DNA of 64,000 nucleotides, taken from IMG/VR virus record IMGVR_UViG_3300025918_000011, positions 5,377 through 69,376 of that record. The stretch is one strand, 5' to 3'. The notes beneath the pieces were generated by a model. That model ran no database searches. It had not been told where the DNA came from and saw only the letters and a list, made by a program, of their open reading frames with translations. Shown piece after piece: positions 24,847 to 27,587 of this stretch. Position 1 is the first letter of the stretch; every line of letters begins with the position of its first letter. The DNA comes from a virus (lineage: Duplodnaviria > Caudoviricetes). The position numbers were made by a program, and so were the translations under genes.

Positions 24847-25074
24847 TCATCGTGGCACCTCGCTCTCGCACTCGCATGGTCGCGGCTCTTCGCTCTCGCA
24901 CTCACACGGCCATTGCCCCATGCGGCACGTACACCGAATCACTCGGACCGTCGGACGCGCCCCCGACGTCACCTCGAGATCCGCGAAGAGCCCGGCGACG
25001 ACGAGCAACGCATCGGAGTCTTTGCGCCGCTCGTCGGCGTCGGCGCTCTCATTATCGTCGCTGTCGTCGCTCAC
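24847..25074 (-). CDS. Small Cys-rich hypothetical protein coupled to the Nop-domain gene
   Basis: GTG overlaps the upstream stop (GTGA); CTC and duplicated PCECESE. Confidence 0.4.
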   Translation of the reverse strand: MSDDSDDNESADADERRKDSDALLVVAGLFADLEVTSGARPTVRVIRCTCRMGQWPCECESEEPRPCECESEVPR

Positions 25075-25952
25075 TCGCACGGCCAGTTCGGAGGCTCGAC
25101 TACGTGCACGTGCCCGCCGTGCTCGATGACCCACGGCTTCGGCGGCTTCTCGCCCAGCACGCTCTCGTACAGCACGTGGTGAAAGTGGCTCAAGAACATC
25201 TTCACCGCGACGCGCTCGGCGCGCAGCTCGAGGCGCCCGTCGGGCAGCTTGCCGGCCTCGTAGGTCGCCTTCGTCGCGGCGTCCTTGATCTTGAATTTCT
25301 CGAGCTTCGCTTTCGCCTGCTCGGCGAACTTGCCCGCCGCGTTACGCTCGACCTCGAGCGCCTTGCGCTCACGATAGAGCTTGCCGTAGGTGCACTCTTC
25401 GCGGTTCGAGAACTTCATAAAGCTCTGTCCGATCTTCCAGCACAGCACCTTGAGCTTCGCGTTGTATGGCCGCTTCTGGCCCTTCTCCCAAACGATCGTT
25501 GGATCGAGCCCGGCGAAGCGCCACACCGCGCCCGCGGTCTTCGCCCGCGTCACGTCGATGTGCGCGAGCAACCCCGCCGCGATCACGGGGCCGATCCCGT
25601 AGACGCTGAGCGCCCAGCGCCCCGCGCGACGCGACTCGGCGTAGACGCCGAGCGCCTTCTTGATCTCGGCCTCGAGCGTCTCCATGTTCGAGCCGAGCCA
25701 CGCGAGCACCGCGTGCGGCTCGTCGGCCTTCGAGGCTTGACGGGCTTGGGCGTGCGCCTGCATGCGGTAGTCCTGGACGGCGTAATACGAGTCGACGAGG
25801 TACCGCGCCTCGCGATCGGTCAGCGTCGACGAGGCGGTCTTGAGGTCGCGGGTTAGTTTGCCGATGGACTCGAGATCGCTCGGCGACGGCGACGGCGATA
25901 CGGCGACGGCTGCGGCGTTGGCGTTGGCGTTGCTGCTCTTTGCTCGGCTCAT
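25071..25952 (-). CDS. IS110/Nop-domain RNA-binding protein without a nuclease domain (TasA-like, TIGR-associated)
   Basis: Coiled coil plus IS110 C-terminal-like motifs SVYGIGPVIAAGLLAHI and AVWRFAGLDP. No N-terminal RuvC/DEDD domain and no SG serine motif after AGLDP. RBS GAGGG; directly downstream of the dual-repeat array. Confidence 0.85.
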   Translation of the reverse strand: MSRAKSSNANANAAAVAVSPSPSPSDLESIGKLTRDLKTASSTLTDREARYLVDSYYAVQDYRMQAHAQARQASKADEPHAVLAWLGSNMETLEAEIKKALGVYAESRRAGRWALSVYGIGPVIAAGLLAHIDVTRAKTAGAVWRFAGLDPTIVWEKGQKRPYNAKLKVLCWKIGQSFMKFSNREECTYGKLYRERKALEVERNAAGKFAEQAKAKLEKFKIKDAATKATYEAGKLPDGRLELRAERVAVKMFLSHFHHVLYESVLGEKPPKPWVIEHGGHVHVVEPPNWPCE

Positions 25953-25974
25953 TTGCGTCAGGCCCTCTCTAATT

Positions 25975-25998
25975 GGCGCCCGCGAAATTGCGGGGCGC
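25975..25998. terminator. GC-rich hairpin between the array and the Nop-domain gene
   Basis: GCGCCCGC-GAAATT-GCGGGGCGC near-perfect inverted repeat. Confidence 0.5.
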
Positions 25999-27587
25999 TC
26001 TCTCGATACTCGCGGCACGGTTGCTCTCCATTGCTACGGCTCGCTCAGGCGGCTCGATACTATCTTCCGAAACGGCTCGCGCATCACAATGAGTTTCAAA
26101 TCCTTCGATACGGCTCGCTCTGTCGTTTCGGCGCGCTCACTCTCATCGGCCTCGCTCGACCTTTACGGTACGCTCACAAGCATCGGCCATCGGCCCGTCG
26201 ATCCGCTCATTCAATATTGGTGCTCTCGTCGACCGCGGCTCGTTCGTGCGTTGCGGCGCTCTCAACATTTTGCGACTCACTCGGCCACGGCGGCACACTC
26301 TTTGCGCTGCGGCTCGCTCGTCGATTACGGGGTGCTCCTTACGTAGGCTCGTTCGTGGTATGCGATGCTCGATCAAGGTCTTCGACTCGCTCCGAAGCAT
26401 CGTTTCTATATCTACGTTTCCGGCTCGATCAATGCTCTCGATCGTTGCGTCTGCGTTCTCGATCTTACGTCTCGTCTCGTTCCATGGCTTGCGGCGCTCT
26501 CACTTCCAACGACTCGATCAGTCCTCCACGTTTTCAACTTCGAAGAGTCCGTCTCGCTCCGTCTCGCTCTTAGGTCCCGGTACCCTCGCACCTCCCGGCT
26601 CGCTTCGTGCCTCGTTGCTTCGTCCAGCACTACGGCTGCAACGCCGTCGTCGCCGTCGTCGTCTCGCTCACTCGTTTCCGGTGCCATCGTCAACTGCGGC
26701 TCGCTCCGCTGCGGCACGGTACGCTCCTTCTCATCGGCTCGCTCTTCGTACGCGGTGCACTCCATCGCGGTCGACTCGCTCCCTAATCACGGCGTGCGAC
26801 GTGCATCGCACACTCACTCGGGGCGGCTCGCTTCGTCGTTCCCGGCGCTCTCATCAAGTACGGCTCGCGCAAGAAACCCGTTACACCTCTATTCAGACGG
26901 CTCGATCAACAACGCACGGCTCTCTCGTCAGCTACGTCTCGTTCTGCTCGTACGGTACGCTCGCGCAATCGGCGACTCGTCTCGTTCGTCTCGTCTCGCT
27001 CCCTAGCATTGGTTCTCTCGCTGGCTTCGACTCGCTCGAGTGTCTCGGTGCTCGCATGATTTGCGGCTGCGGCTCGCAGCTCGCAGCTCGCTCAACATCG
27101 ACGTTGCTGTCGTTCCCTTGGGCTCGTTCGGTCGTTCGGTCACGTCGGGTACACTCCGGACTAGCGACTCGCTCTCGATCGACGTTGCGACGTTCATTGT
27201 CCTTGGGCTCGTTCGGCATCGCCCGGTGCGCTCCCATCTCCCGACTCGCTCGTCGACAACGGTCTCTCTCTGCTCGGTTGGCTCGCTCGGACGCTGCGAT
27301 ACAAAATCTTCGACTCCGACTCGCTCGCTGACAACGGTCTCGCTCGTCTCTGTCGGCTCGATCACGATCAAAGGTACTCTCGCGAATCACGACTCGTTCA
27401 CAAGTCACGGCACGCGCGTATAGATCGACTCGCTCTCGTGGTACGGTGCTCTCGAAGAAGGTAGCTCGTTCGAGGGGTGCGGTGCTCTCTTTAGAGGCGA
27501 CTCGACGGCTCGATCTAGCATCACGGTACGCTCTCATTTGGCGACTCGCTCCTACGCTACGGCACTCTCAGGCACACCGACTCGTCG
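25991..27587 (-). ncRNA. TIGR-like tandem interspaced guide RNA array (36-nt dual-repeat units)
   Basis: Plus strand alternates CGRCTCGYTC - 8 nt - CGGYRCKCTC - 8 nt. First-type repeats start at 27354, 27390, 27426, 27462 and at 27506, 27542, 27578 (exact 36-nt period); also at 26037 and 26073. Confidence 0.88.

Follow-up and report, generated by a model that had tools for sequence, protein, structure and literature searches.

The window analysed here, a stretch of 64,000 nucleotides (nt) that makes up most of the 69,376-nt IMG/VR virus record IMGVR_UViG_3300025918_000011 (Duplodnaviria; Caudoviricetes), carries on its minus strand a 1.6-kb array of short alternating repeats that is followed, after 40 nt, by the gene tasA, encoding a protein of 293 amino acids (aa; Table 1). 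An earlier examination of the letters alone, further referred to as the original prediction, had interpreted these elements as a phage-encoded RNA-guided system of the TasA type. This identity is supported by the sequence and fold of the protein, which are those of Tas proteins, by the absence of a nuclease and by the dual-repeat structure of the array, and the anticipated position of the gene, co-oriented with the array and directly downstream of it, was confirmed. We consider it very likely that a tailed phage carries a dual-repeat TIGR-TasA system at this locus.

The array is built from two repeats of 10 nt each, the edge repeat GAGCGAGYCG and the loop repeat GAGMGYRCCG, which alternate every 18–19 nt. 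The 10-mers that had been noticed at 27354, 27390, 27426 and 27462 and at 27506, 27542 and 27578 (low coordinates on the plus strand) proved to be edge-type repeats on the minus strand. When one mismatch is allowed, 33 matches to the edge motif lie on the minus strand of the array region and none on its plus strand, against 52 on both strands of the remaining 62 kb; the number expected in the array is 0.66 (Poisson P ~1e-43). For the loop motif, 27 matches were obtained at the same threshold, with 2.1 expected (P ~1e-20). A chain constructed by dynamic programming comprises 83 half-units, corresponding to ~43 unit slots, many of which are degenerate; the original prediction had seen room for about 40 units including degenerate ones. 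The same chain bears out the proposed dual-repeat organisation with 8-nt spacers as in SpTIGR (PMC12045711). The claim of an exact periodicity had to be revised. Autocorrelation gave the expected peak at a lag of 18 nt (z 4.0), whereas the signal at 36 nt was weak (z 1.7) because unit lengths are mixed, the distances from edge to edge being 36 (5 cases), 37 (8), 38 (4) and 40 nt (1). The periodic dual-repeat unit itself stands, with a period of 36–38 nt instead of exactly 36 nt. An interpretation as a CRISPR array was ruled out, the elements being two 10-nt repeats with spacers of 8–10 nt and not a single repeat of 25–36 nt.

The TasA protein starts with a disordered tail (residues 1–23), which is followed by a coiled coil (24–106), a Nop-type RNA-binding domain (approximately 109–266) and a C-terminal processing loop that contains W274 and H281. 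In a phmmer search of the PDB, the best sequence match was TaTasR (9mty, E 2.7e-17), followed by SpTasH (E 8.8e-11), while the IS110-family recombinase IS621 gave an E value of 0.011. An AlphaFold2 model based on 40 homologues (predicted local distance difference test score, pLDDT, 88.6; predicted template-modelling score, pTM, 0.82) displays three long helices in the region 24–106 and a helical C-terminal domain. With this model as query, the ten highest-ranking Foldseek matches were cryo-EM chains of TasH and TasR (probability 1.0, template-modelling score, TM, 0.49–0.72), and the IS110-family recombinases ISCro4 and IS621 came next (TM ~0.4). Profile and structure searches, which had been suggested as a check, thus place Tas structures first and IS110 recombinases second, and the description of the protein as a nuclease-less relative of Nop and IS110 proteins holds. 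No DEDD, RuvC or HNH family of Pfam was detected in TasA at E values up to 1, nor was there a match to DEDD_Tnp_IS110, and the coiled coil begins directly after the disordered residues, so that a RuvC or HNH domain could not be accommodated. Since the protein has the Tas fold without a nuclease domain or space for one, it belongs to the TasA subtype in the nomenclature of Faure et al. (PMC12045711). The gene is preceded by GAGAGGG in front of its ATG and is a full-length open frame with a GC content of 0.90 at third codon positions (GC3).

The relationship to IS110 proteins raises the question whether the gene could be what is left of a truncated IS110-family transposase, lying beside an unrelated satellite or low-complexity coding repeats. 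Annotation by family searches might lead to this view, since the only Pfam match is a 37-residue segment of Transposase_20 (E 5e-5) and PHROG 4285, which matches TasA with an E value of 5e-45, bears the label 'transposase'; moreover, long open reading frames (ORFs) of up to 361 codons span the repeat region. However, Tas structures are far better matches than IS621 or ISCro4, more than 3,800 homologues have a similar length (about 270–300 aa, with a range of 250–345 aa), hence there is no truncation, and in different phyla the gene is found together with the same repeats. The ORFs within the array have a GC content that is flat over codon positions (third position 0.53–0.69), whereas GC3 is 0.85–0.90 in tasA, the upstream ORF and the helicase gene. 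Because the in-array ORFs lack this signature of the real genes of the genome, the array region is non-coding, in line with the original description of 1.6 kb without a credible gene. A transposase remnant is therefore extremely improbable.

Table 1 Features of the TIGR-TasA locus and of its genomic surroundings (positions in the window)
Feature	Position	Strand	Remarks
Dual-repeat TIGR array, ~43 unit slots of 36–38 nt	25993..27587	minus	Edge, spacer A (8–10 nt), loop, spacer B
tasA, 293-aa nuclease-less Tas protein	25071..25952	minus	Sequence, AlphaFold2 fold, family searches
Edge-repeat-like 10-mer GTGCGAGTGA	25071..25080	minus	Last tasA codons (..CE*)
GC-rich hairpin GCGCCCCG-CAATTT-CGCGGGCGC	25976..25998	minus	Between last repeat and tasA ribosome-binding site; without U-tract
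261-aa ORF	27600..28385	minus	Stop codon 13 nt before first repeat of the array
Sigma-70-like promoter candidate TTGACG-17-TAGATT	28496..28524	minus	Consensus match only; upstream of 261-aa ORF
Helicase	21475-23190	minus	Replication block
DNA polymerase	5075-7882	minus	Replication block
Fused prohead protease/major capsid gene, 743 aa	55979-58210	minus	PHROG 'major head and protease protein', full length, E 3e-227

Comparison with related loci gives further support to the TIGR-TasA assignment. The closest homologue is 70% identical to TasA, and the relatives that were compared comprise 40 IMG/VR loci and 25 loci from bacterial and archaeal genomes or metagenome-assembled genomes (MAGs) of many phyla, at 38–54% identity (30% for one locus). 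A periodic array of 34–37 nt lies beside the gene in 30 of the 40 IMG/VR loci scanned, and a test with the edge motif detected arrays in 27 of 67 related loci; all arrays found with this motif, for which 26 related loci were compared, are on the tas strand. The repeats of the clade can be written as GAGCGAGCC[A/G] for the edge and GAGAGCACC[A/G] for the loop. Both repeats begin with GAG and end with CG in the window and in the related loci L042 and L067, whereas they end with CA in the other relatives; the last base therefore covaries between edge and loop (G/G or A/A). Such covariation of the box C end is regarded as a signature that a symmetric Tas dimer binds the repeats (Faure et al. 2025; PMC12045711). 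In the 70%-identical relative, L042, a clean array of ~45 units follows directly after the tas gene, and since that array ends in a truncated repeat of the GAGCG type, this type could be designated as the edge repeat. No neighbouring gene is conserved in any relative, which implies that the array and tasA travel as a self-contained module. Some loci with the same or related repeats (L056, L059, L060, L024, L028) have uniform units of 34, 35 or 37 nt and not 36 nt, among them a Woesearchaeota MAG contig (L060) with units of 34 nt; the loop repeat or the length of the spacers varies between lineages.

Several observations weigh against the proposed interpretation. Only ~17 of the ~43 unit slots are intact in the sense that edge, spacer, loop, spacer and edge succeed each other with three good repeats and 8–9-nt spacers, and the unit length is mixed (36, 37 or 38 nt), whereas the literature describes a uniform spacer size within one locus. 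Further, SpTasH performs the processing cut with two residues of a C-terminal loop, Y289 and H296 (PMC13421893), and the position of this catalytic tyrosine is occupied by tryptophan, W274, in the TasA described here. Finally, searches for targets of the spacers, to be discussed below, gave no signal.

Most of these points would also be expected of a TIGR-TasA system in decay, with an intact protein and a mostly eroded array that supplies few or no functional guides, the whole being a fading passenger of the phage. Besides the small proportion of intact slots, less than half, and the replacement of the processing tyrosine, such decay would explain that the dominant unit length accounts for just 44% of the measurable units, as compared to 77–100% in most relatives, among which the array is one of the most length-heterogeneous and most eroded, and that in L042, by comparison, 37 of 43 units still measure exactly 36 nt. 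On the other hand, tasA is full-length with the high GC3 of a real gene, all 47 alignment-invariant residues are kept, and 13 perfect and 33 near-perfect edge repeats persist in the array. Length heterogeneity is comparable in two relatives (L057, L064), and tryptophan or phenylalanine at position 274 occurs alongside perfectly regular arrays in others (L059, L011/L012). We regard decay of the system as unlikely.

The replacement in the processing dyad deserves some attention. The histidine of the dyad is retained as H281, which aligns with H296 of SpTasH and is identical in all 64 alignable related loci, and at position 274 these loci have tyrosine in 57 cases, phenylalanine in five and tryptophan in two. 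TaTasR also has tryptophan at the aligned position and yet yields processed guides (PMC12045711), so a tryptophan at position 274 is probably tolerated for processing. The idea that loss of the processing tyrosine acts as a relaxed ruler and causes mixed unit lengths was rejected, since relatives with tryptophan or phenylalanine have uniform units and relatives with tyrosine (L057, L064) can be heterogeneous.

The target searches assumed that a target site consists of spacer A and, after it, spacer B in reverse complement, an order that we derived from the C-5 cleavage rule and the 8-nt 3' overhangs reported in the literature; both this and the opposite geometry were searched. When the whole 69-kb genome was scanned with the array masked, allowing a gap of 0–2 and at most three mismatches, 0, 0, 1 and 8 matches were found at 0, 1, 2 and 3 mismatches, respectively, while shuffled spacers gave means of 0, 0.07, 0.9 and 12; a signal of self-targeting is thus absent. 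The exact 16-mers of two well-formed guides had 32 and 10 matches in IMG/VR, which is about equal to the chance level according to our own estimate, and these matches were all in contigs of 26–50% GC, none of which was shared.

The GC content of the spacers is 49%, as compared to 67% for the phage genome. AT-rich spacers might be taken as a sign of foreign targets that are specific to this phage, but the argument is weakened by the same shift across the clade (L002–L068), in which the spacers have a mean GC content of 47% and the loci of 60%, a difference of 13 points (r 0.52). Because the offset holds clade-wide, it is a family trait and not evidence of a particular foreign target in this case. 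Targets in AT-rich regions, a constraint on pairing and drift are possible causes of the bias. Of the 460 spacers of relatives, one 8-mer is shared with the array (0.25 expected), in a different context.

Biochemical work on Tas proteins provides a framework in which the locus can be understood. Tas proteins form coiled-coil dimers, which bind one edge and one loop repeat at the box C/D ends; the guides (tigRNAs) that they carry are 36 nt long and result from cuts within the edge repeats (PMC12045711). Binding of 36-nt tigRNAs was found with FpTasA (PMC12045711), and MbTasA binds target DNA and represses transcription reversibly (Xu et al. 2026, bioRxiv 10.64898/2026.09.09.750476), an activity that the original prediction had put forward as a possibility. 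A ternary structure of a TasA complex exists as well (bioRxiv 10.64898/2026.08.11.744272). By homology, we infer transcription and processing of the array, dimerisation of TasA, DNA binding and repression for the phage system, as well as the identity of its targets. Transcription of the array would proceed on the minus strand, probably as one transcript with the 261-aa ORF and tasA that starts at the promoter-like site at 28524. With the coiled coil as the link between its subunits, a TasA dimer would bind an edge and a loop repeat at their ends, box D (GA...) and box C (...CG), and the precursor would be cut inside the edge repeats to guides of ~36–38 nt, probably by the loop with H281, in which W274 replaces the usual tyrosine. 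The two 8–9-nt spacers of each guide could then pair with opposite strands of one DNA site of 16–18 bp. Since TasA has no nuclease, the expected outcome is stable sequence-specific binding and not cutting, and most likely transcriptional repression of genes of the host or of competing elements. RNA-guided DNA binding with repression thus appears the most likely function.

A working system could also serve a purpose other than repression, for example guided bending or binding of DNA for replication, partition or integration of the phage, or exclusion of competitors by a replication block. Roles of this kind were proposed for TasA by Faure et al. (2025), together with a 180-degree bend of the DNA (PMC12045711), and the module is indeed located in a minus-strand block amid replication genes (helicase, DNA polymerase). 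However, among ten neighbouring ORFs, including the 261-aa ORF, Pfam and PHROGs indicated no ParB-like gene, which sets the locus apart from the TasParB-associated subgroup. Self-targets were not detected in the phage genome, and reversible transcriptional repression is the sole activity that has been demonstrated for a TasA protein (10.64898/2026.09.09.750476). We therefore give such a different role a low probability, and repression remains the preferred explanation.

The array also offers some indications about its own history. Two diverged internal duplications were detected, one between 27241-27288 and 27316-27363 (83% identity over 48 nt) and the other between 27080-27107 and 27161-27188 (79% identity over 28 nt). 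The copies are 75–81 nt apart, a distance of two units, which suggests that the array grew by tandem duplication of unit pairs. It can be speculated that the mixed units of 36–38 nt, these duplications and the spacers of ~50% GC together record growth of a TIGR array, with duplication of unit pairs followed by drift, and that TasA tolerates spacers of 8–10 nt, but in this full form the proposal is quite doubtful. If it is true, the phage would use a large and diverse set of guides to silence AT-rich sites, for instance promoters, of a host with a high GC content or of competing elements.

Upstream of the array, the 261-aa ORF has a GC3 of 0.85, which marks it as a real coding sequence; its product is rich in Ser and Pro at the N-terminus and ends in a charged tail. 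Pfam, PHROG and PADLOC gave no matches for it, a homologue beside tas was not found in any of 67 related loci, and the leads obtained from the ESM Atlas, all to proteins of the ribbon-helix-helix type (NikA, MetJ, RHH_1), are weak (score ≤0.85). A role as TasParB or as another conserved partner was rejected, in view of the lack of a family match and of synteny in relatives. The promoter candidate in front of this ORF is the sole promoter-like site on the minus strand within 24400-29000 and may, judged from its sequence, be the start of an ORF–array–tasA transcript. A single transcript that spans these three elements is plausible because this lone site is upstream of an ORF that ends close to the array and because the hairpin between the array and tasA lacks a U-tract. 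This hairpin is present in the minimum free energy fold, but the energy of the 101 nt around it is no better than that of shuffled sequences (z 0.28), and a terminator scan made no call at this position. No Rfam family matched in the region 24000-29000, and PADLOC gave no match for tasA, the upstream ORF or two ORFs within the array.

At the other side of the locus, the last codons of tasA coincide with an edge-repeat-like 10-mer. The protein of L042 shares the C-terminus WPCE*, and its gene reads GTGCGAGTAG just before the downstream array (L042:4257-4267). Judged from the sequence, the 10-mer could be the remnant of an array that once followed the gene, and, in an arrangement like that of L042, the end of the gene may overlap with the first edge repeat. 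The ending ..PCE* is also common to P0001, P0002 and P0003.

The phage origin of the system is supported by the presence of genes for the large terminase subunit (TerL), portal, head-protease fusion and DNA polymerase in the window, and by the CheckV rating of the IMG/VR record as 100% complete. A DNA similarity search against cultured phages gave no match, and TerL is at most 41% identical to any cultured-phage TerL, the closest ones being from Roseobacter, Ralstonia and Acidithiobacillus phages. No tRNA genes were found in the genome. This TasA clade was not detected in cultured GenBank phages either, Salicola phage CGphi29 being the sole tblastn match.

TIGR-Tas systems were published in 2025 (Faure et al.; PMC12045711), and repression by TasA and a catalogue followed in 2026; the published catalogue lists 20,096 tas loci and 6,685 annotated arrays. 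In a part of Table S1 of Faure et al., the signature motif of the clade, GIGPVIAAGLLAHI, occurs more than 100 times, and the exact TasA protein is not among the entries of that part. Both the family and this clade are thus already published, the locus is a genuine but ordinary new example, and the current picture of TIGR-Tas biology is unchanged by it. Its value, which is modest, lies in other aspects. Most TIGR loci are on fragments, and the completeness of the record makes the full phage context of a TasA system available. A long, length-heterogeneous array with duplications also bears on a question that the field itself has stated, namely how TIGR arrays gain and diversify spacers. In view of the absence of the clade from cultured GenBank phages, synthetic reconstruction of such a locus is one route by which it can be studied.

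The locus can be compared with several known systems. The IS110 bridge-RNA recombinases (IS621, ISCro4) share a distantly related Nop-like RNA-binding domain with TasA (E 0.011; TM ~0.4), but TasA lacks the DEDD/RuvC-like catalytic domain and the C-terminal Tnp domain with its serine, and the locus has no bridge RNA and is not a mobile element. TaTIGR-TasR of a Thermoproteota archaeon (PDB 9MTY), which provides the best sequence match in the PDB, has the C-terminal KPW..EHGGH motif including the tryptophan in common with TasA, as well as a dual-repeat array, which in that case is processed into 36-nt guides; unlike the phage protein, TasR possesses an N-terminal RuvC nuclease, and its array has 9-nt spacers and repeats that start with UG and end with CCA. 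In SpTIGR-TasH of Salicola phage CGphi29 (PDB 9W03, 9W04, 21KL), spacers of 8 nt and units of 36 nt resemble those described here, the Nop domain (E 8.8e-11) gives the best structural matches, and the processing histidine is kept (H296/H281). In contrast to TasA, SpTasH is a DNA-cutting protein with an HNH nuclease at its N-terminus, the identity over the shared domains is ~20%, and Y289 stands where TasA has W274. The known dual-repeat TIGR-TasA systems include FpTIGR of Flavonifractor plautii and that of MbTasA. Compared to the usual representatives, the array is long, with ~43 slots against 5–15 typically (a mean of ~16 per dual-repeat array according to TIGRFinder), although the nearest relative also has ~45; it mixes spacers of 8–10 nt and contains many eroded units; box C ends with G instead of A, and tryptophan replaces tyrosine in the processing dyad; and its place is upstream of tasA, with an unrelated ORF on its other side. 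In common with these systems, the locus has a solo protein of ~290 aa with a coiled coil and a Nop domain but no nuclease, an adjacent co-oriented array in which edge and loop repeats of ~10 nt alternate, separated by short spacers, a covariation of the box C/D ends of the two repeats, and carriage by a phage.

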